From an uncultured candidate division Zixibacteria bacterium (GTDB lineage Bacteria > Zixibacteria > MSB-5A5 > GN15 > FEB-12): 64,000 nt of DNA. The stretch lies in the NCBI GenBank assembly GCA_963735035.1, contig CAVTJJ010000004.1:256001-320000 (forward strand), in the 5' to 3' direction. Shown here piece by piece: positions 32,633 to 60,761 of the stretch. The position numbers and the translations under genes were made by a program. How positions within the stretch are numbered: position 1 is the first letter of the stretch; the number at the start of each line of letters is the position of its first letter. The notes under the pieces are model-generated. The model was not told the origin of the DNA. It did not search any database and worked only from the letters and a program-made list of their open reading frames with translations.

Positions 32633-34624
32633 TCAGGCCTTGACCTGAGCATCTTCATGCCAGACGGAAAATTCACTGCGGTCGATCGGCTTGGGTAGAT
32701 CGAAATTCTGCAGGAATCGGTGCGCCAGGAGCTGGGTCGAGAGTATCCCGACAAAAGCCATATTGTCTTTGAACGACAGATGCTCGTCGGCACCTTTCTG
32801 ACATTTCTTATAGAGCAGTGCCACGGACTTCGGGTTGAAAAGCCCCGTGCGTTTGATCGCATCTTCCGAGAGCATTTCCGCCACATAGGTCGGGGAGTCG
32901 GGCTGAACGAAGCAGTTTGAGTCCGGCGCCATGTACGGTTGCTTTACCCGTTTGACTATTTCCGGTGGAAGCTCCGGTTTCATGGCTTTCTTCAGGATGT
33001 ACTTCTCAATCAATCCAAAAATCTTGTAGCCGGGCGGAACGGTGGCCGCAAATTCGGCGACGCGGTGATCAAGAAACGGGAACCGGCCTTCGACCGAGTT
33101 GGCCGCACATACCCGATCTCCCTGCGAAGACAACAAGTAGCATGACAGGAGCGACCGACTCTCCAGAAATTGCGCCCGCGCCAGCGGATGCCAACGGCTA
33201 AACCCGGACGGCAGGTCGCGTCCGAACGCCCCGACGGAATCGTAATCGCCAATGGCAGTACGAATTTCGGGGGTGAAGAATTCTTTCAGGCGAGTCGTCG
33301 TGTTTATCCTCGGAATATGTGAGAAATAGAACTCAGAGATCTTGTCGAGACCTGACTTATAGAACTGCTCCAGATAATGTTTCGCCCGTGCCCCAGAAAC
33401 CGGCAGCGTCGGATATAGTTCCCTCAGCACCGACGGCCGCCATTTTGATTCGGGATTTCTGGCCCAGAAAGCGCGGATGAGCGTCTCTTTGAATATATCA
33501 TAGCCGCCGAGCATTTCGTCGGAGCCTTCGCCGGTCAGCACCACTTTGAAATTGTTCTGTCGTACCAGGCCGGACAGGAGCAGGAGCGGGGTGGGTGCAG
33601 TCCGAACCAGCGGACGTTCGGTGTGCCAGATCACGCGCGGGAATTCTTCGGCGATGGAGCGGTACGTGCAATTGATCGTGTGATGGCTTGTCCCGAGATG
33701 TTTCGCCATCTGCATCTGATACTTCGATTCATCGTATGCCTTGTCCTCGAACGTTACCGAGAACGTCTCCAGCCGTGATTGAGTGAAGTGTCTTATCAAC
33801 GCCGTTGTCACGGACGAATCCAACCCGCCGGAAAGATACGCTCCCACCGGAACATCGGCCCGCAACTGGAGCCGGACTGAGTCAATCAACAGGGCGCGCA
33901 GTTCTTCGGCGTACGACTCGACCGGTCGCTCACGATCGAATTGCTCCGGGAAAGTCATCGTCCAGTAGCGGCCGTTCTTGACATCGCCATCCTTTACTTC
34001 GAGCCAGGTGCCGGCTTCGAGCTCGTTGATCCCTTCGAACATTGTCCGCGGTGGGGCAGAGGTCCACCAGGTGAAAGTTTCGTCGAGACCCTTTAGATCA
34101 AGTCTTCTCGGTATTCGAGGATCGCAGAGGATCGCTTTGATCTCGGATGCGAAATAGAAACGTCCGTCGTGGACGGCATAGAAGCAGGGTCTGATACCGA
34201 GCCGGTCACGCGAAACGAACAAAGTCCGGTTGCGTCGGTCATAGAGTGCGAATGCAAACTGGCCGTTGAAATGATCCACACAATTGCGGCCGTACTGCTC
34301 ATAGGCGTGGACGATAACTTCGGTGTCGGAATTGGTGCGAAACTTGTGCCCCTGTATCTCCAACTCCTGACGCAACTCGATGTAGTTGAAAATCTCGCCG
34401 TTGAAGGTGATCCACAGGTTGCCGTCTTCGTTGCACAACGGCTGTGACCCTCCGGCCAGATCGATAATCGACAGCCGCGCCTGTCCCAGGCCACAGCGGT
34501 CGTCGAAATACGCCCCGAACTCGTCCGGGCCGCGATAGCGGATAGCGTTCACCATGCGCCCGATCAACTCACGATCCGGGGGCGCCGGCTCTTTCATCTG
34601 GAAGTATCCCGCTATTCCGCACAT
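32633..34624 (-). CDS. asnB: Asparagine synthase (glutamine-hydrolysing), EPS-associated amidotransferase
   Basis: MCGIAG, RGPD, RLSIID, NGEIFN, LSGGLDSS, GEGSDE, RFPFLD. Confidence 0.92.
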   Translation of the reverse strand: MCGIAGYFQMKEPAPPDRELIGRMVNAIRYRGPDEFGAYFDDRCGLGQARLSIIDLAGGSQPLCNEDGNLWITFNGEIFNYIELRQELEIQGHKFRTNSDTEVIVHAYEQYGRNCVDHFNGQFAFALYDRRNRTLFVSRDRLGIRPCFYAVHDGRFYFASEIKAILCDPRIPRRLDLKGLDETFTWWTSAPPRTMFEGINELEAGTWLEVKDGDVKNGRYWTMTFPEQFDRERPVESYAEELRALLIDSVRLQLRADVPVGAYLSGGLDSSVTTALIRHFTQSRLETFSVTFEDKAYDESKYQMQMAKHLGTSHHTINCTYRSIAEEFPRVIWHTERPLVRTAPTPLLLLSGLVRQNNFKVVLTGEGSDEMLGGYDIFKETLIRAFWARNPESKWRPSVLRELYPTLPVSGARAKHYLEQFYKSGLDKISEFYFSHIPRINTTTRLKEFFTPEIRTAIGDYDSVGAFGRDLPSGFSRWHPLARAQFLESRSLLSCYLLSSQGDRVCAANSVEGRFPFLDHRVAEFAATVPPGYKIFGLIEKYILKKAMKPELPPEIVKRVKQPYMAPDSNCFVQPDSPTYVAEMLSEDAIKRTGLFNPKSVALLYKKCQKGADEHLSFKDNMAFVGILSTQLLAHRFLQNFDLPKPIDRSEFSVWHEDAQVKA

Positions 34625-34652
34625 ATGAGTCTTTTTCCGCGATGTCCTATCT

Positions 34653-36239
34653 TTAGTGTGCCGGTCCCGAAAATTTCGTATTCTTGCCCAGCATCTGCTC
34701 TTTTACCAGCAACTTGTTCACTTTGCCCGATTGATATTTTGGCAGACTTTCTACAAAAGTCACGGACCGGGGCACTTTGAACTGGGCCAGACCTTTCTGA
34801 CACCAGCCCTGTATCTGTTTGTCGTCGGCGTGACAGCCCGGTCGCAACACGACCACGGCGTGAATCGCCTCGCCGAGGATATCATCCGGCACTCCGAACA
34901 CGGCCGCCTCGGCAATCGCCTCGTGGGCCACAATTCGTTCTTCGATTTCTTTAGCGCTCACCCTGTGTCCGGCCGCTTTGATGATCTCCCGCTTGCGACC
35001 AACTATGAAGATGAACCCTTCGGCATCCTGATACGCCAGGTCGCCGGTAATCAACCAGCCGTCGCGTAACACTTCGGCGGTTGCCTCGGGCTGATTCCAG
35101 TAGCCCAACATGACATTTGGCCCGCCGACCGCAATTTCGCCGGTCTCGCCCTGAGGAAGATCCTTGCCGTTTTCATCGGTGATCTTCACGGTTACGCCCG
35201 GTACTGCTATGCCTATTGAACCGAGCTTGTCGCTCAGACGTTCCGGCGGCAGATAAGTAACGCGCGGGGCGGCTTCGGTCTGGCCGTACATGATCCAGAT
35301 TTCCTGATTTGGGCAGGCTTCACAAAGGCGGCGGGTCACTTCGGGCGCCATCGCGCCGCCGGCCTGGGTGATATATCTCAAATCGGCCAGCTTGCGTTTG
35401 GCGATGGATGACTTGCTGAGCGCCATCATGAAGGTCGAAGGCACTCCGGAGAAGCCAGTCGCCTTCGATTCTTCCAGAGTATCGAGCACCAGTTCCGGGT
35501 ACATGAAGCGGTTGTCGATCACGACATGACCTCCGCAGGCGACATGGGTCAGCAGGAGCGAGTTGCCGTAGATATAATAGAATGGCAATATGACCAGCAC
35601 TGAATCGTCCTGAGTCAGACGAAGATACTCAACTGTCGCCAGCGTGTTTGAGATCAGATTGCGATGCGACAACATGACACCCTTCGGTTCGCCGGTCGAA
35701 CCCGAAGTATAGAATATGGCCGCCAATTCGTGCGGAGCCTGGTCAGCATTCGGAAGCGTTGCTGCGGCCCGGCTCAGGCTCGGAATCGGTGCGGCGGAGT
35801 CGATGATTTCGCCAATTGACTCTACGGGAACGGATCGAGCGGTCCCCAGTTGCTTGTCGGAGATGATCAATTCTAGTTCGAGGTTGTCGCCGATGATGGC
35901 GTCAAGTTGACGGCGATACTTCCCCTGCACCAGGAGCACCTGCGCACCGCAGTCGGACAAGATGTAATTCAGATTCTCAGGTGCGAGCGAGGTATCCAAC
36001 GGCACGATCACCAGGTCGGCCATGTACGCGGCGAAATAGCAGATGAGGTATTCAATAGTGTTCTCGAACAGAATGGCGGCGCGTGTCTCGGGCGGTAGTT
36101 GCAGCTGTTTGAGCCGTTCGGCCAGAGCCGCCGATGAACGATACAGCTCACCGTAAGTGATACTGCGCCCAAGATGAATCGCCGCCGTCTTCCCTTCGGA
36201 AGCGGCGGCGGTCTTTATCAGAAGATCAGAAACTTTCAT
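34653..36239 (-). CDS. AMP-forming acyl-CoA/aminoacyl ligase (exosortase-associated type)
   Basis: YTSGSTGEPKGVMLSH, YGQTEA, TGD, SGKV; adjacent to ACP. Confidence 0.88.
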   Translation of the reverse strand: MKVSDLLIKTAAASEGKTAAIHLGRSITYGELYRSSAALAERLKQLQLPPETRAAILFENTIEYLICYFAAYMADLVIVPLDTSLAPENLNYILSDCGAQVLLVQGKYRRQLDAIIGDNLELELIISDKQLGTARSVPVESIGEIIDSAAPIPSLSRAAATLPNADQAPHELAAIFYTSGSTGEPKGVMLSHRNLISNTLATVEYLRLTQDDSVLVILPFYYIYGNSLLLTHVACGGHVVIDNRFMYPELVLDTLEESKATGFSGVPSTFMMALSKSSIAKRKLADLRYITQAGGAMAPEVTRRLCEACPNQEIWIMYGQTEAAPRVTYLPPERLSDKLGSIGIAVPGVTVKITDENGKDLPQGETGEIAVGGPNVMLGYWNQPEATAEVLRDGWLITGDLAYQDAEGFIFIVGRKREIIKAAGHRVSAKEIEERIVAHEAIAEAAVFGVPDDILGEAIHAVVVLRPGCHADDKQIQGWCQKGLAQFKVPRSVTFVESLPKYQSGKVNKLLVKEQMLGKNTKFSGPAH

Positions 36240-36272
36240 TTTGTCCCAACGGCGACGGGAGCCGGAGAGAGA

Positions 36273-36536
36273 TCAGCCGGCTTTTCTCTGTACGAACGCC
36301 GCCAGATTGTCGACCGAATCGAGGTTGGCCGGGATCATTTCCTCGTCTTCGACCGTAATGCCGTAAGTCTGTTCCAGATGTGAGACGAGCTCCAGGACTC
36401 CGGTCGAATCTATGATTCCCTTTTCCATGAAAGAATCGCCGTTCTCGAACCCTTCCGAGTCGTCGCCGAACAGGAAAGTTTCCAGTATGAAAGTCCTGAG
36501 TTCCTCGCGGATCGAATTGAGTTTTGCTACTGTCAT
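36273..36536 (-). CDS. Acyl carrier protein
   Basis: Acidic, 87 aa; GIIDSTGVLELV phosphopantetheine site; NLDSV. Confidence 0.9.
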   Translation of the reverse strand: MTVAKLNSIREELRTFILETFLFGDDSEGFENGDSFMEKGIIDSTGVLELVSHLEQTYGITVEDEEMIPANLDSVDNLAAFVQRKAG

Positions 36537-49295: not shown

Positions 49296-49317
49296 TGTCG
49301 CTACAAGGCCTTGGGGC

Positions 49318-49494
49318 CTGTTGAAAAAGCCCGTCCAATCGTCATTGCGAGCGGAGGTGGCCCGCCGCCAGGCGGGACAGCGTAGCGCGGCAATCTCAAG
49401 CTCGTTTTGACAGCGTTATTTGAGATCGCCACGTCTCGCCTGCGAAGCGCAGTCGAGACTCGCGATGACGGGGAAGGGACTTTTTCGACACTCC
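49318..49494 (+). mobile_element. MITE-like palindromic element with GTTGAAAAAG/CTTTTTCGAC ends
   Basis: Core as at 32483; terminal inverted repeats. Confidence 0.7.
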
Positions 49495-49571
49495 CGTTGT
49501 ACCTGGTGCCCGGCCGATGCCCACATCGGCCGACTGACTGAGCCAACGTATACAATCGAGGATCCACCGCC

Positions 49572-50996: not shown

Positions 50997-51329
50997 TTAG
51001 TCCTTAAACAGATCGTCGAAATTCTTCCGGCGCGATTCCTTGTTGTCTGTCCGCTGCCTGATGCCGCCCGCGCCCTTGACCACCTCGCGCACCTGGAAGA
51101 AATCACAGAAATTGGCTTTGTTCTTGTTCAGCACCGGATGATCGACATTCTCGCGACACTGGTGCCGTCGCGTGGGATCAAAATGCCGACAGCCGCGGCA
51201 GGTGCGAAGATCAGCGAGGCAGTTCTGGCACTGATCGTGCCGCGTGACACTGCCCTTGGAGCCGGACGGTCGCCCGCAACTCCAGCAGAGCAGACCTTCT
51301 TCTTTCAGTTCGCCGCCGTGTAAAGCCAT
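50997..51329 (-). CDS. Small Cys-rich conserved hypothetical protein
   Basis: CWSC, CQNC, CRGC..FDP, CRE, ANFCDFF; ends FDDLFKD. Confidence 0.7.
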   Translation of the reverse strand: MALHGGELKEEGLLCWSCGRPSGSKGSVTRHDQCQNCLADLRTCRGCRHFDPTRRHQCRENVDHPVLNKNKANFCDFFQVREVVKGAGGIRQRTDNKESRRKNFDDLFKD

Positions 51330-51427: not shown

Positions 51428-51609
51428 GGGAGTGTTGAAAAAGTCTCTTCCCCGTCATCGCGAGTCTCGACCGCGCTTCGCGGGCGAGATGTGGCGATCT
51501 CAAATGACACTGACACAACGAGCTTGAGATTGCCACGCTAAGCTGACCCGCCTCACGGCGTGCCATCTCCGCTCGCAATGACGATTAGACAGCCTTTTTC
51601 AAGACTCCC
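51428..51609 (-). mobile_element. MITE-like palindromic element nested in another repeat
   Basis: IRs GGGAGTGTTGAAAAAG / CTTTTTCAAGACTCCC around the inverted core. Confidence 0.7.
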
Positions 51610-52390: not shown

Positions 52391-53638
52391 CTACGCGCCG
52401 TACTTGTCGATGATCTCCTGCTTCGACTTGCCAAGGATGTCGTACTTCTTGCCGACCTTACGGAAAGCGTCGAGCGCTTTGTCGAGATGATGAATCTCGT
52501 GACCGGCGGAGATCTGCGTGCGGATACGCGCCTGGCCTTGCGGCACCACCGGGAAGAAGAAGCCGATCGCGTAGATGCCCTCGGCGAACAAATCGCGCGA
52601 GATATCCTGTGAGAGCTTGGCGTTGAACAACATCACCGGCACGATCGGGGTATCGCCCTCTTTCAGAACGAAGCCGGCCTCCTCGAGACCTTTCCGCCAA
52701 TAGGCGGTGTTCTTCTCGAGTTTGTCGCGTCGCTCGGTACTCTTGGACAGAATATCCAGCACCCGGATAACACCGGAAACCACTACCGGCGCAATAGTAT
52801 TCGAAAACAGGTATGGCCGCGCTCTCTGGCGGCACATCTCGACCAGTTCGCGGCGTCCTGACACGCAGCCGCCCGACGCTCCACCAAGCGCCTTGCCGAA
52901 AGTAGTCGTGATGACATCGATCTTGCCCACCACGCCGTATTTCTCGTGCGTGCCGCGGCCGGTCTTGCCGATGAATCCACTGGAGTGGGAATCGTCTACA
53001 AACAGCATGGCGTCGTACTTATCACACAGTTCCACCATCTTGTCCAACTGCGCCGTGTCGCCGTCCATCGAGAACACGCCGTCAGTGATAACCATGCGGA
53101 CTCTGCGTCCGGCGTGAAGCTGCAATTTCTCTTCGAGATGCTCCATGTTGGCATGTTTGAACGTATCCTGCTCGGCGCTGCACAACCGCATGCCGTCGAT
53201 AATCGACGCATGCACGAGCCGGTCGGCGATCATCATGTCGTCTTTGGTGAGAACGGCCTCGAAGATACCGGCGTTGGCGTCCATGCATGACGGGAACAGA
53301 ATTGTGTCTTCGGTGCCGAGGAAAGCGGTTACTTTGCGTTCCAACTCACGATGTATATCCTGCGTGCCGCAGATAAAGCGTACCGATGACATGCCGTAGC
53401 CACGGCTGTCGAGGCCTTCGTGCGCTGCTTTGAGTACCTCGGGATGGCTGGACATGCCGAGATAGTTGTTGGCGCACATGTTGATTACTTTCTTCGGCGC
53501 GGCGCCGGTCGGAAATTCGACTTCGATATCCGCCGCCTGCGACGAATGTATGTACCGTTCCTGTTTGAACAGGCCGGCGTCCTGAATCCCCTTAAGTTGA
53601 TCTTGATAAATTGTGCGAACCTTATCGCTGTAGCCCAT
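52391..53638 (-). CDS. kbl: Glycine C-acetyltransferase (2-amino-3-ketobutyrate CoA ligase)
   Basis: CANNYLG, SSVRFICGTQ, HASIIDG, DDSH, TFGKALGG, RPYLFSN, ARIRTQ. Confidence 0.92.
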   Translation of the reverse strand: MGYSDKVRTIYQDQLKGIQDAGLFKQERYIHSSQAADIEVEFPTGAAPKKVINMCANNYLGMSSHPEVLKAAHEGLDSRGYGMSSVRFICGTQDIHRELERKVTAFLGTEDTILFPSCMDANAGIFEAVLTKDDMMIADRLVHASIIDGMRLCSAEQDTFKHANMEHLEEKLQLHAGRRVRMVITDGVFSMDGDTAQLDKMVELCDKYDAMLFVDDSHSSGFIGKTGRGTHEKYGVVGKIDVITTTFGKALGGASGGCVSGRRELVEMCRQRARPYLFSNTIAPVVVSGVIRVLDILSKSTERRDKLEKNTAYWRKGLEEAGFVLKEGDTPIVPVMLFNAKLSQDISRDLFAEGIYAIGFFFPVVPQGQARIRTQISAGHEIHHLDKALDAFRKVGKKYDILGKSKQEIIDKYGA

Positions 53639-53710
53639 ATTCGACTCCTAGGTTAGCTGCCACATCGCGAACCGGCCGAATCTTACCCGGCCGGTTAATC
53701 ACACCCGACG

Positions 53711-53956
53711 CTACTTGAGGAATTGCCGGACCAGCGCCACGATTTTGTTGACCGAATCAAATGCTTCGGGGGTGGCCTTCTCATCCGGAATGCTGATCTT
53801 GTACTTGTTCTCGAGGAACCGCTTCAGCGAAACCATGGAAAAAGAATCGACGATACCACCCGAGATCAGGGCCGTGTCGCAATCGATTTCTTCTTCTTCA
53901 TCCTCGAGATATTCGTTCTTTACATATTTCAGAACGGCTTGTTGCATTTCATCCAT
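53711..53956 (-). CDS. Acyl carrier protein
   Basis: Acidic, 81 aa; GGIVDSFSMV; FDSV. Confidence 0.9.
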   Translation of the reverse strand: MDEMQQAVLKYVKNEYLEDEEEEIDCDTALISGGIVDSFSMVSLKRFLENKYKISIPDEKATPEAFDSVNKIVALVRQFLK

Positions 53957-53982
53957 CGATACACCTGCTTCTATATTTGACG

Positions 53983-55686
53983 TTAATCATTTTCCAGTGT
54001 GGAAGTGTCGCCGATTTCCTCGCCCCATTCCTTGGCTCGCAACACTCGGCGCATGATCTTGCCGGAGCGGGTCTTGGGGAGCGACGGTACGTATTCAATC
54101 TCCTGCGGCATAGCCAGCGGGGAGAGTCTCTTGCGAATGAAGTTCATGATATCCAGTTCAAGATCGACACTCGCCTCAAAACCGGGCTTAAGTGTCACGA
54201 ACGCCTTCACCACTTCCATGTTGACTTCGTCCGGCTTGGCCACGACTGCCGATTCCGCCACTGACGGGTGTTCCAGCAGCGCCGATTCGACTTCGAACGG
54301 GCTGACCAGATGTCCGGCGGTGTTGATGATATCGTCATCGCGACCTGCGAACCAGAAGTAACCATCGGCGTCGATACTCGACCGGTCACCCGGCATGTAC
54401 CAGCCGTTCTTGAATTTAGCTTTGTAGGTAGCCTCGTTATTGCGATAGCCGCGCATCATCGCCGGCCATCCAGGTTGAAAGGCAATAAGGCCGATCCGCC
54501 CGGGATCAGTAATAGGTTCGTAGGTCTTGAGATCGAGCACGGTTGCCCCGATGCCGGGGAAGGCGCGCCCCATCGAACCCGGTTTCACTTTCATGCCGGG
54601 GAAATTCGTGATCATCATCGAGCCGGTCTCGGTCTGCCAATACGTATCATGGAACGGTAGGCCGAAGACACGCAGGGACCAATGCACCGCCTCGGCGTTG
54701 AGCGGCTCGCCCACACTGCATAGGTGGCGAAGTGATTTCATGTCGAACTTCTTGACGATCTCGTCACCGGCCTTCATCAAAGACCGGATTGCGGTCGGAG
54801 CCGAATACCAGACCGTCACACGATGCTTCTCAATGAATCGGTACCAGTTCTCCGCCGAGAATCCTACATCCTGCACGCATTGAGTGACGCCCATGGTGAA
54901 GGGTGCGATAATGCCGTACGATGTGCCCGTGACCCAGCCCGGATCGGCGGTGCACCAGTAGACGTCGTCGTCCTTCAGGTCAAGCACCCACTTCGCGGTC
55001 AGGAACTGTGATATGAGCGAGTAGTGTACGTGCTGTACGCCTTTCGGCTTACCGGTAGTGCCGGAGGTGTAGTGAATCACCGAGGGCGACTCGGCTTTGG
55101 TCGGATAGGCCGGGAAATTCTCAACCGGTTTGGCATCGGCGAGTGAGAAAGCAATCTCGCGATCTTTCAACTCTCTCTTGCCGTCGTGATCGACAATGAT
55201 GATGTGCTTGAGGAACGGCATTTGATCGAGAATGCGGCGCACTTTGCCGACATGCTTGCGCTGAGTCAATATGGCAGTTGCCTGAGCGTCTTCAAGGCGC
55301 ACGAAGAGCGAATCTTCACCGAAAGCCGAGAACAGCGGCTGTGCGACGGCGCCCATCTTCAGAATGCCGACAAAGCCCAGATACAGTTCCGGAATGCGGT
55401 CCATAAAAAGACAGACACGATCGCCCGGCTGGATGCCCAGATCGCGCAGATAGGCGGCGATAGTGTTGGTAGTGAGGCGAACATCGTTGTAAGTGTACCG
55501 CTTCTCTTCGGCGCCGGTACCTTCCCAGATAAGCGCCGGTTTGTCGGCTTTGCCCATCTGACAGACACGATCAGAGCAGTACCAGCCGATGTTGATGACA
55601 TCGCCCGCTTTGTAACCGAGTTCCTTTTCAGCGATATCCCAACTGAAATTGCGAGCCCGGTCTTCGTAGTTGCCAAAATTATTCAT
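53983..55686 (-). CDS. acsA: Acetate-CoA ligase (AcsA type)
   Basis: YTSGTTGKPKG, YWCTADPGWVTG, SVGEPLN, DTYWQTETG, PKTRSGKIMRR. Confidence 0.88.
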   Translation of the reverse strand: MNNFGNYEDRARNFSWDIAEKELGYKAGDVINIGWYCSDRVCQMGKADKPALIWEGTGAEEKRYTYNDVRLTTNTIAAYLRDLGIQPGDRVCLFMDRIPELYLGFVGILKMGAVAQPLFSAFGEDSLFVRLEDAQATAILTQRKHVGKVRRILDQMPFLKHIIIVDHDGKRELKDREIAFSLADAKPVENFPAYPTKAESPSVIHYTSGTTGKPKGVQHVHYSLISQFLTAKWVLDLKDDDVYWCTADPGWVTGTSYGIIAPFTMGVTQCVQDVGFSAENWYRFIEKHRVTVWYSAPTAIRSLMKAGDEIVKKFDMKSLRHLCSVGEPLNAEAVHWSLRVFGLPFHDTYWQTETGSMMITNFPGMKVKPGSMGRAFPGIGATVLDLKTYEPITDPGRIGLIAFQPGWPAMMRGYRNNEATYKAKFKNGWYMPGDRSSIDADGYFWFAGRDDDIINTAGHLVSPFEVESALLEHPSVAESAVVAKPDEVNMEVVKAFVTLKPGFEASVDLELDIMNFIRKRLSPLAMPQEIEYVPSLPKTRSGKIMRRVLRAKEWGEEIGDTSTLEND

Positions 55687-55689
55687 CAG

Positions 55690-56070
55690 TTACTCTATTC
55701 CTTCAGGTTGCAGGGCAACCACGGCACAAGCGTATTGATCGGTGAATGACGACGAGACCAGATAACGGTCACTATCGACGCCACCTATCAGTTCGCTCAT
55801 TCGACCGCTCAGTCGAAGCCGGGTCGCACCTGAACGATTCATGACTTCTATATCTCTAAATCTGAGCCCTTCATGCAAACCAATTCCAGCCGCTTTTAGA
55901 AGAGCTTCCTTGACGGCCAGGATAGCGGCGAGGCGGGCATATCCTCGGCGCTTTGTCCGATACTCCGCCAGCTCACTATCGGTGAATATTCCCTCAAGGG
56001 TGCCGTCGGCGCGGTCAACCGCGCTTCTAATCCGGTCTACCGTGACTATGTCTATACCGAATGCTTGCAT
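55690..56070 (-). CDS. acpS: Holo-ACP synthase (AcpS-type PPTase)
   Basis: GIDIV..RI, IFTDSE, AVKEALLKAAG.G. Confidence 0.85.
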   Translation of the reverse strand: MQAFGIDIVTVDRIRSAVDRADGTLEGIFTDSELAEYRTKRRGYARLAAILAVKEALLKAAGIGLHEGLRFRDIEVMNRSGATRLRLSGRMSELIGGVDSDRYLVSSSFTDQYACAVVALQPEGIE

Positions 56071-56096
56071 GTCGTGGCGCTCCGTGATAACCGGCC

Positions 56097-57074
56097 TTAG
56101 CCGATCTTGCTCACCGTGGGCCCTACCCGGAGCTTGCGCGACAACACGTCGATCATGTCGCTGGTCATCCTGGCGAGATCGTACTCAGGTTTCCAGCCCC
56201 ACTCCTTGCGGGCGCAGCTATCATCCATTGAGTTCGGCCACGAATCAGCAATCGCCTGTCGCACCGGATCGACGTTGTAGTCGATCGTGAATTCTGGAAT
56301 ATGCTTGCGGATTTCATCGGCGAGAATCTTTGGGGTGAAGCTCATTGCTGTAACGTTGAACGAATTCCGATGTATCAGCTTCGTGCCATCAGCCTCCATC
56401 AGGTCGATCATGGCGCGAATGGCATCAGGCATGTACATCATATCGAGCCAGGTGTCGGGTCTGAGATAGCAGGTGTATTTCTTACTCTTGATAGCCTGAT
56501 AGAAGATGTCCACAGCGTAATCGGTGGTGCCGCCACCCGGTTCGGTTTCATACGAGATCAATCCGGGGAAGCGAACGCCCCGGGTATCGAGTCCGAACCG
56601 TTTGTGGTAATAGTCACACAGTAGTTCGCCGGCCACTTTGGTGACGCCGTAGATTGTGTCGGGCCGCTGTATTGTATCCTGAGGGGTCTTGTCCTGTGGA
56701 GTCGACTTTCCAAACGCGCCTATTGAGCTAGGAAAGAACAGCGAACACTTATGCTGCTGTGCCGCTTCGAGAAAATTGAACAGGCCGTTCATGTTGACCT
56801 GCCAGGCGGTGCCGGGGCGGGACTCGCCGGTGGCGGACAGGATCGCTCCCAGATGATAGATCGTATCGATATCATGAACCTGCATCACACGGGAGATATG
56901 ATGCGGCAGGGTGACGTCCAGAAATTCAAACGGGCCGGCATCGCGCAGCCGTACGTCGGTGGGCATGCGGATGTCGGTCGCGACTACTTTGTCATCACCA
57001 TATTTCTGTCTGAGTGCGGCGGTCAGTTCGGATCCGATCTGACCGAGAGCGCCGGTAACCAGAATCTGCTTCAT
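56097..57074 (-). CDS. tdh: L-threonine 3-dehydrogenase (SDR/GalE-like)
   Basis: TGALGQIG, LSATGE, PSSIGAFG, YGVTK, PGGGTTDYAV, MMYMPD, RQAIADSWP. Confidence 0.88.
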   Translation of the reverse strand: MKQILVTGALGQIGSELTAALRQKYGDDKVVATDIRMPTDVRLRDAGPFEFLDVTLPHHISRVMQVHDIDTIYHLGAILSATGESRPGTAWQVNMNGLFNFLEAAQQHKCSLFFPSSIGAFGKSTPQDKTPQDTIQRPDTIYGVTKVAGELLCDYYHKRFGLDTRGVRFPGLISYETEPGGGTTDYAVDIFYQAIKSKKYTCYLRPDTWLDMMYMPDAIRAMIDLMEADGTKLIHRNSFNVTAMSFTPKILADEIRKHIPEFTIDYNVDPVRQAIADSWPNSMDDSCARKEWGWKPEYDLARMTSDMIDVLSRKLRVGPTVSKIG

Positions 57075-57257
57075 CTCAAAGGACCTCAATAGCTTACTGT
57101 TGCGGGCGCGAATCTGAAATATTTCGCCGCCCAAGCCGTCCACGTTGCCGGCCAGCTCGCTGGAAAATAAGGAACGGGCAGGAAAAATCAAGCGAATCCG
57201 CGCTATCAGACGCGATTCCGCACCAACATCTGTCTATGGGGAAGATCCGCTTAATAG

Positions 57258-57385
57258 TCATTGCGAGCGGAGATGGCTCGCCGTCAGGCGTGGCATCGTA
57301 GCGCGGCAATCTCAATGTTGTTGCACCAGTATCATTTGAGATCGCCACGTCTCGCCCGCGAAGCGCGGCCGAGACTCGCGATGAC
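57258..57385 (+). mobile_element. Palindromic MITE-like element, fourth copy
   Basis: GTCATTGCGAGCGGAGATGG...GCAATCTC...GAGATCGCCAC...CTCGCGATGAC. Confidence 0.75.
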
Positions 57386-57407
57386 GGGGAGTGAACTTCT
57401 ACAACAA

Positions 57408-58073
57408 TTAGTCCGGTGGTCGTATGGTAGCGATAGCGGCCAACAACTGTTCTTTGTTGGCGATAGATATCTTGCGTCCTCTGATTGGTAGATCAGGCAG
57501 ATCTCTGGCGTAGCGCCTTAGTTTGACCACTGGCATCGCTGCAAGCTGTTCCCACGTTGGCTGTTCGGAAGAGATCTCTGAAGTGTGGGCAGGAATGCGG
57601 ACGGGTGGAGTGGCGATTCGAATTGGCGCCTCTACTATCGCGGGTTCTTTGTGACTAACGGGAGCCGGTGCTTTTGGTTTGGTAGGCTTTCTGGCAGGCT
57701 TGGTTGGCGATGCGACACGAACCGCGGCGGCCTTCTCGGGAGCCGGCTTCTTGAGAATCGGGGCGGAAGACTCGTCGGGACTGTAGCGGTCGACAAAACG
57801 CGGATAAGGCATGATCGCACTGACTTCGTCGTCGGATTTTGGGATCACGTGCATCGACACCAGTTCGCCGGCGACATAGGCAGCGCGTGCTCCAGCTTCA
57901 ACTGCTCCCTGGACCGCCGACCATTCACCCTCAATCTTGACCGTCATGCGGCCGGACGCTCCCTGCTCCGCCGAGACAATCACTACCTCACCCAAATCCG
58001 ATGCGGCGCGGGTCGCCTTGATGGCGCCTTCAATGCCGCTTGTTTCTACTAGTCCTAACGCTGGTCGTGGCAT
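57408..58073 (-). CDS. BMC-H shell protein with Pro/Ala/Lys linker and C-terminal helical domain
   Basis: ALGLVET.G...AI.A, VKIEGEWSAVQGAVEAG, HVIPK; C-terminal VVKLRRYAR...ISIANKEQL. Confidence 0.85.
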   Translation of the reverse strand: MPRPALGLVETSGIEGAIKATRAASDLGEVVIVSAEQGASGRMTVKIEGEWSAVQGAVEAGARAAYVAGELVSMHVIPKSDDEVSAIMPYPRFVDRYSPDESSAPILKKPAPEKAAAVRVASPTKPARKPTKPKAPAPVSHKEPAIVEAPIRIATPPVRIPAHTSEISSEQPTWEQLAAMPVVKLRRYARDLPDLPIRGRKISIANKEQLLAAIATIRPPD

Positions 58074-58252
58074 GATCCTGAACCTACAAAATGCCGTGCT
58101 CCGATTCAACCAATAAAGTGATCGACAACTTGTGGAACATAAATGAGCGTCGCCCGTGCATCCCCTCGAGCACGGGCGACTGGGCACCAAGAAAAAGAGG
58201 ACCTACCGAGCGCCTTGTCAGCGCCAGGAGTAAGAATGACGCAACGGTATTT

Positions 58253-58268
58253 AGCAAGGGCTGTGCCA
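58253..58268 (-). promoter_or_regulatory. sigma54 -24/-12 promoter
   Basis: Minus strand TGGCAC-AGCCC-TTGCT, matching the consensus. Confidence 0.8.
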
Positions 58269-58487: not shown

Positions 58488-60761
58488 CTAGTTGGGCATG
58501 CCGCCCTCCGCGCTGATCCCGTACCGTTTCAGCTTGGTTCTCACGGTCGCTTCATGGACGCCGAGGATGCGAGCCGCCTCGCTCTTGTTACCGCCGGCCG
58601 CCAGAAGCGCTTCGGTAATCAACTGCCGCTCGAATTGTTCGACACGTTCAAACAGGCCACCGGCATTGTCGGCCGCGTGGTCGGGAGCCAGAATCGACCG
58701 GGCTACTTCGTGCCACTGACCTTCAGCCACCGACTGTGACATTATTGAAAGCCGATTGACGACATTGTCTAGCTCGCGAACGTTGCCGGGCCAATCATGA
58801 CCAACGAACTGCTGCACCAATTCCGGCGCCGGTTTCTGTCCCGGCTTGAGCAGCCCACGATGAATCATGAAGTGCTCCAGCAGCAGAGGGATGTCTTCCT
58901 TGCGCGAGCGCAGTGACGGAAGATGCAGGGTGATCCCGCTCAGTCGGTAGTAGAGGTCCCGACGGAACGTGCCCTGTTCCACCATCGCTTCGAGATCGCG
59001 GTTGGTGGCCGCCACCACGATGATATCAATCTCGACCTGCTTGGTGCTTCCCAGCGGTGTTACGCGCCGTGATTCCAGTACGCCGAGCAGTTTCGCCTGG
59101 AGCGACAACGGCATTTCGCCGATCTCGTCGAACAAGAAAACGCCGCCGTTAGCCGATTCGAGCAGACCTTTCTTATTGTGGTCCGCTCCGGTGAAGGCGC
59201 CTCTGTGGTAACCGAACAGTTCCGATTCGAGCAGCGTCTCGGGCACCGAGGCGCAGTTGATCGCCACGTACGGTCCACTGGGTCGAACCTGCGAGTGATA
59301 GTACCTCGCCAGGTGATCCTTGCCGACACCCGTCTCGCCCGTAATAAGCACCGGCAAATCGGAGCGATTCAAGAGCGGCAGTTGCTTCTTGATTCGCTCG
59401 ATAATCGGAGACTGAGTGAGATATTCATGCTCGCCGGGGGTCGGAGAGGATTCGTGCGTCTGCTGTGTGACCTTAGCCAGACGGCCGATTTCGTTGGCCA
59501 GCCGGCTGACCTCGTCCTGTTTCGACTTGATCCGACACCGGGAGTAGAATTCTTCGGCCCTGAACAGATAAGTCAGGCGTTGTTGGTCGGAGAACGCTTC
59601 GGAGGCTCCGGCCGCAATCAACGCTTCGGCCTTGGCCCATCGAACACCCGATTCGGCCAGAATGTCGATAGCCTTCTGGAACAACTGACGGGCTTCAACC
59701 GCCTGTCGTTCACTCACCGGACGGGCTTCACCCATAGCCACCTGAGCCATGATCTTCTTGAGCGCGCCGAGTTCGAGTTTCTCGTCGGAGCGTTCCATGA
59801 TAACCGTGGCTCGCGCCGCCATCTTCTGAGCTTGACGATAGTCGCCGGTGCGCACGGCCAGTTCGGCCAGATGACGCATTACCCGGCCGGACAGCGAGGT
59901 GCCTGAACCAAGAAGTTCCGCTTTCTCGAAAGCGCGTCTCAGGGTCAGGGCCGACTGCGCGAAGTCGGCAATGCGATAGTTCAGCTCACCCAGATAAGTC
60001 AGGTAACTGACTTCATCACGCGGCGAGTTGACCACCGTGAGCAAAACGCCGGCCTGGTTGAATTCCGCCTCGGCCTTGTCATACTCTGCCTGCTGCAGGT
60101 AGACGTATCCGAGAGATAGATGGGCGCGAAGCGTATTGAGATCGTCACCCAGTTCACCGGACATCTGGATATTGATCCGGAGATGTTTCTCCGCTTCAAT
60201 GAAATCACCCATGAACATATATATGCGGCCGATGTTGCCCATCATGAAAGCCAGCTTGCGCGGGTTATCGAGCCGTCGGGCGATTTCGACCGCATCCATC
60301 AGCACCGCCAGAGCGTTACGGTAGTCGGTCTGTCGGAGATACAGTCCGGCCAGACGATTCAGTGCCCGGCTCTGACCTTCGGGACAATCATATCTTCTGA
60401 AAATCGATTCCGCGTCGCGGTACGCCTTCTGTGCTTCAACAAGTTCACCCCTGTCTCGCAGGATACCTCCCAGGGTAACGAAGACCTCGGCCAGCATCAA
60501 CGAGTCGCCGGCGCGGGTAACGATAGCCTGGGCAGTCCGTGCCACCTTCAAGGCAGCTGTCAGATTGGTGAGGGAAGCATAAGCCCGAGCCGCCAGATGC
60601 AGGATTTCTCCTACTTCGGCTGCTCCGGCTTCAGTGTCTATCTGGCTCTGTTGAGCCTCATAGCACTGCACGGCGCCGACAAAGTCTTGCCTGGCCAGCA
60701 TCGCCCGCATGTGGGCGGCCGCCGAAACGCAGAACGTCTTGTCTACGTCGTGTTGGCTCAT
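58488..60761 (-). CDS. TPR-domain sigma54-dependent activator (bEBP) with Fis HTH
   Basis: About 430 aa of TPR-like helices; GETGVGKD, ESELFG..GAFTGA, FLFDEIGE, WPGNVREL, GNKSEAARILG. Confidence 0.92.
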   Translation of the reverse strand: MSQHDVDKTFCVSAAAHMRAMLARQDFVGAVQCYEAQQSQIDTEAGAAEVGEILHLAARAYASLTNLTAALKVARTAQAIVTRAGDSLMLAEVFVTLGGILRDRGELVEAQKAYRDAESIFRRYDCPEGQSRALNRLAGLYLRQTDYRNALAVLMDAVEIARRLDNPRKLAFMMGNIGRIYMFMGDFIEAEKHLRINIQMSGELGDDLNTLRAHLSLGYVYLQQAEYDKAEAEFNQAGVLLTVVNSPRDEVSYLTYLGELNYRIADFAQSALTLRRAFEKAELLGSGTSLSGRVMRHLAELAVRTGDYRQAQKMAARATVIMERSDEKLELGALKKIMAQVAMGEARPVSERQAVEARQLFQKAIDILAESGVRWAKAEALIAAGASEAFSDQQRLTYLFRAEEFYSRCRIKSKQDEVSRLANEIGRLAKVTQQTHESSPTPGEHEYLTQSPIIERIKKQLPLLNRSDLPVLITGETGVGKDHLARYYHSQVRPSGPYVAINCASVPETLLESELFGYHRGAFTGADHNKKGLLESANGGVFLFDEIGEMPLSLQAKLLGVLESRRVTPLGSTKQVEIDIIVVAATNRDLEAMVEQGTFRRDLYYRLSGITLHLPSLRSRKEDIPLLLEHFMIHRGLLKPGQKPAPELVQQFVGHDWPGNVRELDNVVNRLSIMSQSVAEGQWHEVARSILAPDHAADNAGGLFERVEQFERQLITEALLAAGGNKSEAARILGVHEATVRTKLKRYGISAEGGMPN

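Follow-up and report, generated by a model that had tools for sequence, protein, structure and literature searches.

The window analysed here is a 64-kb stretch of DNA from an uncultured candidate division Zixibacteria bacterium (GCA_963735035.1, CAVTJJ010000004.1:256,001-320,000, forward strand), and it carries a five-gene operon, tdh-acpS-acs-acp-kbl, that is proposed to encode a threonine/2-amino-3-ketobutyrate/glycine/acetate pathway on a private acyl carrier protein (ACP). In this pathway, a ligase related to acetyl-CoA synthetase would load the ACP with acetate, and the Kbl enzyme would use the thiol of the ACP. Judged by their sequences and their distribution, the five genes appear to be a widely conserved, undescribed unit that probably hands acetyl between acetate and threonine/glycine on its own carrier and not on CoA. 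We found no description of an ACP-dependent Kbl, or of an acetate-ACP ligase of such a type, in the full-text literature, supplements aside.

The operon and its conserved core

The five open reading frames (ORFs) lie on the minus strand in one orientation, with intergenic gaps of 26, 3, 26 and 72 nt in the order in which they are listed here:

56097..57074, minus strand: SDR-type L-threonine 3-dehydrogenase (Tdh; PDB 7ol1, 439 bits)
55690..56070, minus strand: dedicated AcpS-type 4'-phosphopantetheinyl transferase (TIGR00516, 70.7 against a cut-off of 59.8)
53983..55686, minus strand: AcsA-like AMP-forming ligase, proposed to be an acetate:holo-ACP ligase (NF003313, 745.9 against a cut-off of 729)
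53711..53956, minus strand: dedicated 81-aa carrier protein (weak NCBIfam carrier-protein matches, DSF serine motif)
52391..53638, minus strand: Kbl1, a glycine C-acetyltransferase/2-amino-3-ketobutyrate lyase paralogue (TIGR01822, 564.8 against a cut-off of 493)

An earlier note on this DNA had described such a set of five co-oriented genes with short gaps; the ORF list reproduces that arrangement exactly, coordinates included, and the identities that it gave to the genes hold up against profile models and solved structures.

A scan with the ligase as query, limited to one genome per species, matched at least 596 stretches; 588 of these proved to be relatives, and the analysis continued with the best 80 (loci of this set are cited by their L numbers). 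One of the 80, L076, encodes an ordinary Bacillus-type AcsA and was set apart from the remaining 79 cluster-type loci, whose ligases share 61-82 % identity with the window ligase. By record title, the 79 loci come from Ignavibacteriota, Bacteroidota, Cloacimonadota, Aminicenantes/Acidobacteriota, Zixibacteria, KSB1, Marinimicrobia, Delongbacteria, Gemmatimonadota, Fibrobacterota, Fermentibacteria, Stahlbacteria/WOR-3 and other phyla. A Kbl at least 62 % identical to that of the window is referred to as Kbl1.

Linkage was counted in the 66 loci with at least 2 kb of sequence downstream of a cluster-type ligase. The ACP is present in 62 of them and Kbl1 in 56, and the three genes for ligase, ACP and Kbl1 are adjacent, with the ACP in the middle, in 56 of the 66; an AcpS homologue occurs in 38 of the 79 related loci. 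The acp/acpS/ligase/kbl linkage on which the earlier note had built its proposal is thus conserved, and the association of ligase, ACP and Kbl is not a matter of chance. Identity across phyla is high for Kbl1 (64-87 %), the ligase (61-82 %) and the ACP (56-81 %) and only 28-47 % for AcpS, a pattern that speaks for the core trio being under strong constraint and not for recent transfer of the whole cluster. When all ORFs of the 79 loci were clustered, no further conserved gene was found to accompany the core.

The ligase clears the equivalog cut-off of the NF003313 acetate-CoA ligase model narrowly, and it matches the 572-aa enzyme of PDB 9g79 with 541 bits. It carries the motif DTYWQTETG and, with residues counted along an alignment to 2p2f, is identical to that structure at V310, T311, V386 and W414 (S. 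enterica numbering), the four residues that we take to form the acetate pocket of S. enterica Acs. The short-chain Trp that had been read from the sequence earlier is therefore retained, as are the other three residues of the pocket. A gene for a SatP/YaaH (GPR1/FUN34/YaaH) acetate channel adjoins the cluster in three Cloacimonadota loci, in two of them between Kbl1 and a second Kbl (Kbl2):

L022:6661-7224: SatP-type acetate channel gene
L062:9322-9894: SatP-type acetate channel gene
L002:5115-5705: SatP-type acetate channel gene

Taken together, the four retained pocket residues and the adjoining SatP/YaaH gene point to acetate as the substrate.

According to the available text of PMC10455477, three arginines (Arg191, Arg526, Arg584) are important in the second, CoA-dependent step of Acs, and the window ligase does not carry this full set. 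The Arg526 position is Leu in the window ligase and in all 74 of the 74 family ORFs; it is Arg in the ordinary AcsA of L076 and in 9g79, 8rpk and 2p2f. Arg584, which contacts the 3'-phosphate of CoA, is retained, and the Arg191 position aligns to Gly in a gapped stretch where the alignment is unreliable. Together with the extra AcpS of the genome and its separate housekeeping AcpP, the family-wide change of Arg526 to Leu suggests that the thiol acceptor is not CoA.

The 81-aa carrier has no Pfam match, and its NCBIfam matches are only weak (ACP_for_OlsHI, 55.3 bits; AmcB; DltC). It has an acidic N-terminal stretch and a serine motif, VDSFSMVSL, that is invariant from V36 to L44 among sequences 60-81 % identical across phyla, within an ACP whose mean column identity is 70 %. 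On the AcpP model, the operon carrier reaches 26.3 bits against 118.3 bits for a housekeeping AcpP encoded elsewhere in the genome. AcpS is likewise present twice, the housekeeping copy being located at C3:210212-210559 (95.8 bits). Given these separate housekeeping copies of AcpS and AcpP, the phosphopantetheinyl transferase and the carrier of the operon are extra, dedicated ones.

Kbl1, the only Kbl in the genome, exceeds the cut-offs of both Kbl equivalog models (TIGR01822, as listed; NF005394, 563.5 against 460) and matches the solved Kbl structures 7bxp (459 bits) and 1fc4 (439 bits). It has the T-x-G-K-A-x-G motif with the lysine that binds pyridoxal phosphate (PLP): K249 in TFGKALGGASGG (TFGKALGG) is invariant in 23 of 23 Kbl1 sequences, and the motif aligns with the same motif in 7bxp and 7v58. 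Mean column identity over these 23 sequences, which come from many phyla, is 82 %. An orthodox Kbl2 adjoins the module in 24 of the 79 loci, where the order is often MDR-Tdh, Kbl2, ligase, ACP, Kbl1, and five sampled Kbl2 copies score 575-682 bits on TIGR01822 against 565 for Kbl1. Thirteen residue positions are group-specific between Kbl1 and Kbl2, and Kbl1 has a conserved C-terminal tail that is common to some Kbl2. Its gene context argues for an ACP thiol in place of free CoA as the partner of Kbl1; a predicted complex of the Kbl1 dimer with the ACP reached 0.08 where the mark was 0.32, which is evidence neither for nor against. A sphingolipid or aminolipid reading of the operon was discarded on account of the acetate pocket of the ligase and because the synthase belongs with Kbl and not with serine palmitoyltransferase (SPT; NF047600, 314.8 against a cut-off of 640).

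A simpler explanation would be that the enzymes are ordinary, i.e. a normal acetyl-CoA synthetase with a CoA-dependent Kbl and Tdh, and that the ACP and AcpS are neighbours with an unrelated job. The ligase and Kbl1 do still lie above the NCBIfam equivalog cut-offs for CoA enzymes, and the ligase keeps Arg584, which speaks for this explanation and against a carrier-based pathway. We nevertheless consider it highly improbable: the ACP gene stands between ligase and Kbl1 in 56 of the 66 loci and in many phyla, it follows the ligase even where MBOAT or glycan genes replace Kbl, Arg526 is Leu throughout the family, many genomes hold an orthodox Kbl2 besides Kbl1, and the cluster has a dedicated second AcpS.

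The replacement of Kbl concerns a small offshoot of the family. Six loci encode the ligase and the ACP without Kbl1. The ligase-ACP pair adjoins a DltB-like MBOAT gene (159.7 bits on the DltB model, under the cut-off of 375) and a DltD-like gene in L048, L066, L068 and L080, and in L069 it lies amid genes for glycosyltransferases, a Wzy-like protein and a polysaccharide deacetylase; identity in the offshoot loci is 67-72 % for the ligase and 64-69 % for the ACP. In a quick maximum-likelihood tree with SH-aLRT support, the five offshoot ligases form one clade (support 90) nested in a clade of Bacteroidales ligases labelled as having a Kbl context (support 99), a label that includes loci whose contig ends before the Kbl position. 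The offshoot looks like a Dlt-style co-option; it may represent a surface O-acylation system that depends on an acetyl-carrier protein and arose a single time from the Kbl module. That the pair is kept together with MBOAT and glycan genes supports a role of the ligase in charging the carrier protein.

A second ligase/carrier set is present in the window at 32633-36536 on the minus strand and consists of an AsnB-type amidotransferase, an acyl-CoA-ligase-like protein (TIGR03098, exosortase A-associated, 378.8 bits, under the cut-off) and an 87-aa ACP. It resembles a trio associated with PEP-CTERM/exopolysaccharide (EPS) systems, and its ligase and ACP are 26 % and 31 % identical to the operon ligase and ACP.

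Threonine dehydrogenases and the proposed pathway

The dehydrogenase of the operon is an extended SDR of the epimerase fold and, by tblastn, the only such gene in the genome. Its match to 7ol1 extends over residues 1-314, and it finds 18 solved Tdh sequences, 7ol1 included, at an E value of 1e-70 or better, against about 50 bits for the best non-Tdh epimerases. An SDR Tdh stands beside the core in 18 loci and a Zn-MDR Tdh (NF003808, 576 bits against a cut-off of 380) in 17, and the two never occur together. The recruitment of two unrelated enzymes of like activity is good evidence that the core is tied to threonine, suggesting that threonine and 2-amino-3-ketobutyrate are part of the pathway. 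Two counts pull the other way. Of the 41 loci flanked by 4 kb or more on each side, only 19 have an adjacent Tdh, and a search of 18 genomes without an adjacent Tdh returned a Tdh elsewhere in 13 and no confident Tdh in 5.

These gaps, which leave about half of the well-flanked loci without a Tdh and 5 of 18 genomes without a confident one, favour a reading in which the ACP module is real and its product or consumer is a different one, such as an aminoketone (aminoacetone, pyrazines), another short acyl group like propionyl, or acetyl-ACP derived from threonine or acetate for an acetyl acceptor encoded elsewhere. It is also favoured by the five loci in which the ligase-ACP pair would serve other acceptors and by the production of aminoacetone-derived pyrazines from Kbl/Tdh operons (reported in the available text of PMC9814548). 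Still, we regard a different product as improbable, since the 79 loci yielded no extra conserved gene with the core, Tdh of two independent types was recruited beside it, the acetate pocket is fully conserved and cross-phylum conservation of 80 % and more is unusual for secondary metabolism.

In the proposed carrier-based pathway, AcpS would first convert the 81-aa apo-carrier to its holo form. The AcsA-like ligase would then catalyse acetate + ATP + holo-ACP <-> acetyl-S-ACP + AMP + PPi, Kbl1 would catalyse acetyl-S-ACP + glycine <-> 2-amino-3-ketobutyrate + holo-ACP, and Tdh would catalyse 2-amino-3-ketobutyrate + NADH <-> L-threonine + NAD+. With its dedicated ACP, the pathway would hold its acetyl thioesters in a pool insulated from that of CoA, and the Kbl step would thereby be coupled directly to the ligase step.

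The nearest described system is AasR/AcpR/SPT. The earlier note had pointed to the precedent of an SPT with a dedicated ACP and an acyl-ACP synthetase, and this precedent is sound: according to the available text of PMC9386255, which deals with Caulobacter, Sphingomonas and E. coli B, the AasR ligase charges its own ACP exclusively and does not acylate CoA, and SPT prefers acyl-ACP. The same text describes joint encoding of an ANL ligase with a small specialised ACP and an alpha-oxoamine synthase, often with an SDR reductase nearby; the window likewise has a dedicated ACP, distinct from AcpP, with an ANL ligase and an oxoamine synthase. Unlike the FadD-like long-chain ligase of that system, however, the ligase here is AcsA-type with an acetate pocket; the synthase is a Kbl (glycine, C2) above the equivalog cut-off and not an SPT, the product would be a central metabolite and not a lipid, and the cluster has its own AcpS. 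AasR-AcpR-SPT is found in Proteobacteria, whereas the cluster occurs in FCB-group and other anaerobe phyla.

Four further systems offer partial parallels. The canonical Tdh-Kbl pair (E. coli kbl-tdh) has clear homologues here, with the PLP lysine motif kept, but it uses free CoA and has no ACP, phosphopantetheinyl transferase or ligase, and Kbl1 belongs to a distinct, very conserved sub-clade that scores lower on the Kbl model (565) than the neighbouring Kbl2. In DltA-DltC-DltB-DltD, an ANL ligase loads a small carrier that feeds an MBOAT and a DltD-like protein, which is the pattern of L048, L066, L068 and L080; the ligase here is, in contrast, Acs-type and not DltA-type, and the window has no MBOAT, Kbl being the partner. 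The acetate:SH-ACP ligases of citrate lyase and malonate decarboxylase use acetate and ATP to acetylate the thiol of the lyase system's private carrier; these ligases are not known to be ANL/Acs-type, the prosthetic group of their ACP differs, and no homology is implied. Finally, the AMP-forming Acs of Syntrophus aciditrophicus converts an acetyl thioester, AMP and PPi to acetate and ATP, as the last step of the pathway would in the catabolic direction; its thiol is CoA, and its bias has been mapped to the CoA-binding loop (G196, T197), whereas a carrier-protein thiol would be used here (available text of PMC13404658).

If the carrier-based reading is correct, acetate activation and the Kbl reaction, both textbook CoA steps, have a carrier-protein form in several hundred species, mostly uncultured anaerobes, whose genes are now annotated as ordinary acs ('acetyl-CoA synthetase') and kbl ('Kbl'). 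Acetate and threonine fluxes would then be wrongly assigned in metabolic reconstructions of Cloacimonadota, Aminicenantes, Bacteroidales, Ignavibacteriota, Zixibacteria and others. The principle of AasR/AcpR/SPT, in which a private ACP delivers a free acid to an oxoamine synthase, would extend from lipids to a C2 unit, and the operon would provide a testable case of carrier-protein pool insulation.

Direction of the proposed pathway and its probable upstream control

Our tentative preference is for the module acting here as an inducible catabolic operon, a preference that draws in part on three features upstream of tdh:

58488..60761, minus strand: sigma-54 enhancer-binding activator; TPR region at the N-terminus, receiver domain absent (Sigma54_activat 204 bits, TPR_12, HTH_8)
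58253..58268, minus strand: sigma-54 (-24/-12) promoter motif TGGCAC-N5-TTGCT (exact match to TGGCACNNNNNTTGCW)
57408..58073, minus strand: BMC-domain protein, first gene after the promoter (Pfam BMC 55.9 bits, residues 44-118 of the long ORF)

The exact match to TGGCACNNNNNTTGCW is the only one in the window, where 0.03 would be expected by chance, and the equivalent place in L012, the closest relative, reads GGGCAC-N5-TTGCT. The activator, whose best NCBIfam match is PrdR (285 bits, under the cut-off), has a homologue in the same position in L012 (58 % identity) and probably regulates the operon. Sigma-54 activator-dependent promoters usually drive inducible catabolic operons, and an exact motif with an adjacent activator ahead of the operon, conserved in L012, thus inclines us towards catabolism. 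A sigma-54 promoter as a general feature of the cluster was rejected, such control being indicated only in the window and in L012. A scan for sigma-70 promoters and terminators gave nothing above shuffled expectation.

The BMC-domain gene that opens the operon leans in the same direction. In its product, an N-terminal BMC domain is followed by a Pro/Ala/Lys-rich linker and a C-terminal extension; the listed ORF extends to a TTG at 58190, and the ATG at 58073, which precedes the BMC domain, is the likely start. Homologues are found upstream of tdh at L012:3795-4346 and L016:20-691 (an Ignavibacteriales and a Zixibacteria locus). As the only PF00936 match in the whole genome, the gene does not appear to be part of a microcompartment locus, which would have several shell-protein genes (BMC-H/T hexamers plus a pentamer) along with encapsulated enzymes (the pentamer family was not searched).

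Further support for catabolism comes from the orthodox Kbl2 that adjoins the module in 24 of the 79 loci, a gene order that is coherent if all of these enzymes degrade threonine, from the coexistence of ThrC with the cluster in many carriers, and from the precedent for a reversed AMP-forming Acs, which the available text of PMC13404658 documents in Syntrophus aciditrophicus. Run in this direction, the pathway would cleave threonine to glycine and acetyl-ACP, and the reversed ligase would release acetate and make ATP from AMP and PPi. The insulated pool might then couple threonine cleavage to ATP formation from AMP and PPi, as a protein-bound form of substrate-level phosphorylation that PPi could turn either way, and the module could be a hitherto unrecognised but widespread energy-conserving or threonine-salvage device of anaerobes; we consider this fuller proposal unlikely.

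Several observations weigh against a catabolic role. The genome encodes acetate kinase (AckA), so a route to ATP through an ACP is not needed, and beyond insulating the thioester pool there is no compelling reason for an ACP in catabolism. In polysaccharide contexts, the ligase-ACP pair clearly appears to be an acyl donor. Few of the 80 loci have a relaxed form of the sigma-54 motif, TGGC-N7-TTGCW, ahead of the cluster, with L020 as a possible case. The genome also lacks Hom, ThrB and ThrC above the cut-off, which bears on the opposite direction.

In that opposite, anabolic direction, the same chemistry would use ATP to load acetate onto the ACP, Kbl1 would condense it with glycine and Tdh would reduce the product to threonine; ATP-to-AMP chemistry would keep the private ACP pool in a highly acetylated state and thereby drive a condensation that is otherwise unfavourable. 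The earlier note had put such an ATP-driven threonine route first and had allowed for catabolism; the anabolic direction is possible, though in our estimation somewhat unlikely, and it is not favoured over the catabolic alternative, whose fit is no worse. In this genome, which is 96.9 % complete, neither Hom nor ThrB nor ThrC exceeded the cut-off (the controls were positive in 14 of 14 genomes), and Kbl1 and Tdh are single copies, all of which fits synthesis by the operon. So do the MBOAT and polysaccharide contexts in which the ligase-ACP pair would serve as acyl donor and the pairing of a phosphopantetheinyl transferase with a dedicated ACP, which is typically biosynthetic, AcpR routing a free acid into a condensation (available text of PMC9386255).

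The absence of threonine genes is less telling than it seems, since HisD and ArgH are also missing above the cut-off in the genome (IlvC and AckA were detected). This gene content suggests a multiple amino-acid auxotroph, and the loss of the threonine genes therefore appears to be part of a general auxotrophy. Among 201 genomes sampled from the phylum, 76 carry the specific ACP (at 59 % identity or more) and 70 have ThrC: both are present in 21, the ACP only in 55, ThrC only in 49 and neither in 76, no ThrC match at an E value of 1e-35 or better being found in 131 of the 201. The 55 of 76 carriers without ThrC would suit an anabolic role, but 76 of the 125 non-carriers lack it too, and the difference in ThrC presence (21 of 76 carriers against 49 of 125 non-carriers) is not significant, with a Fisher p of 0.13 that is itself too optimistic because it treats related genomes as independent. 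In other phyla, ThrC is present in 5 of 5 carriers. The idea that carriers as a rule lack thrB/thrC was accordingly not borne out, and thrC complementarity was dropped as a test of the anabolic direction. Because ThrC coexists with the cluster in carriers and shows no association within the phylum, the cluster is not a general substitute for the homoserine route. Two further points stand against the anabolic direction, namely the predicted control of the operon by a sigma-54 activator and the orthodox Kbl2 that shares the operon in many loci and would undo the condensation.

Neighbouring sequences

The window contains a dispersed repeat of about 155-180 nt with 83-88 % identity between its copies:

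49314-49495: dispersed repeat copy
51428-51609: dispersed repeat copy
57252-57406: dispersed repeat copy

The spacer between the BMC gene and tdh holds one copy, and another, in inverted orientation, is located downstream of the operon. The repeat is not specific to the operon: blastn returned 59 matches across the genome, 25 of them of at least 120 nt, and it looks like a REP/MITE-like element. The inverted 155-nt repeats had been considered as the borders of a mobile cassette, a candidate that was rejected on account of these 59 matches.

A Cys-rich ORF of 110 aa with CxxC motifs and no Pfam or NCBIfam match lies at 50997-51329 of the window on the minus strand, and homologues with 55-64 % identity are found near the cluster in the two closest loci (L012:11302-11631 and L016:8486-8806). 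In four Bacteroidales loci, a protein of about 238 aa without a Pfam match is encoded between the MDR Tdh and the ligase:

L030:1043-1849: inserted protein of about 238 aa
L041:2709-3425: inserted protein of about 238 aa
L042:4960-5661: inserted protein of about 238 aa
L055:5172-5891: inserted protein of about 238 aa

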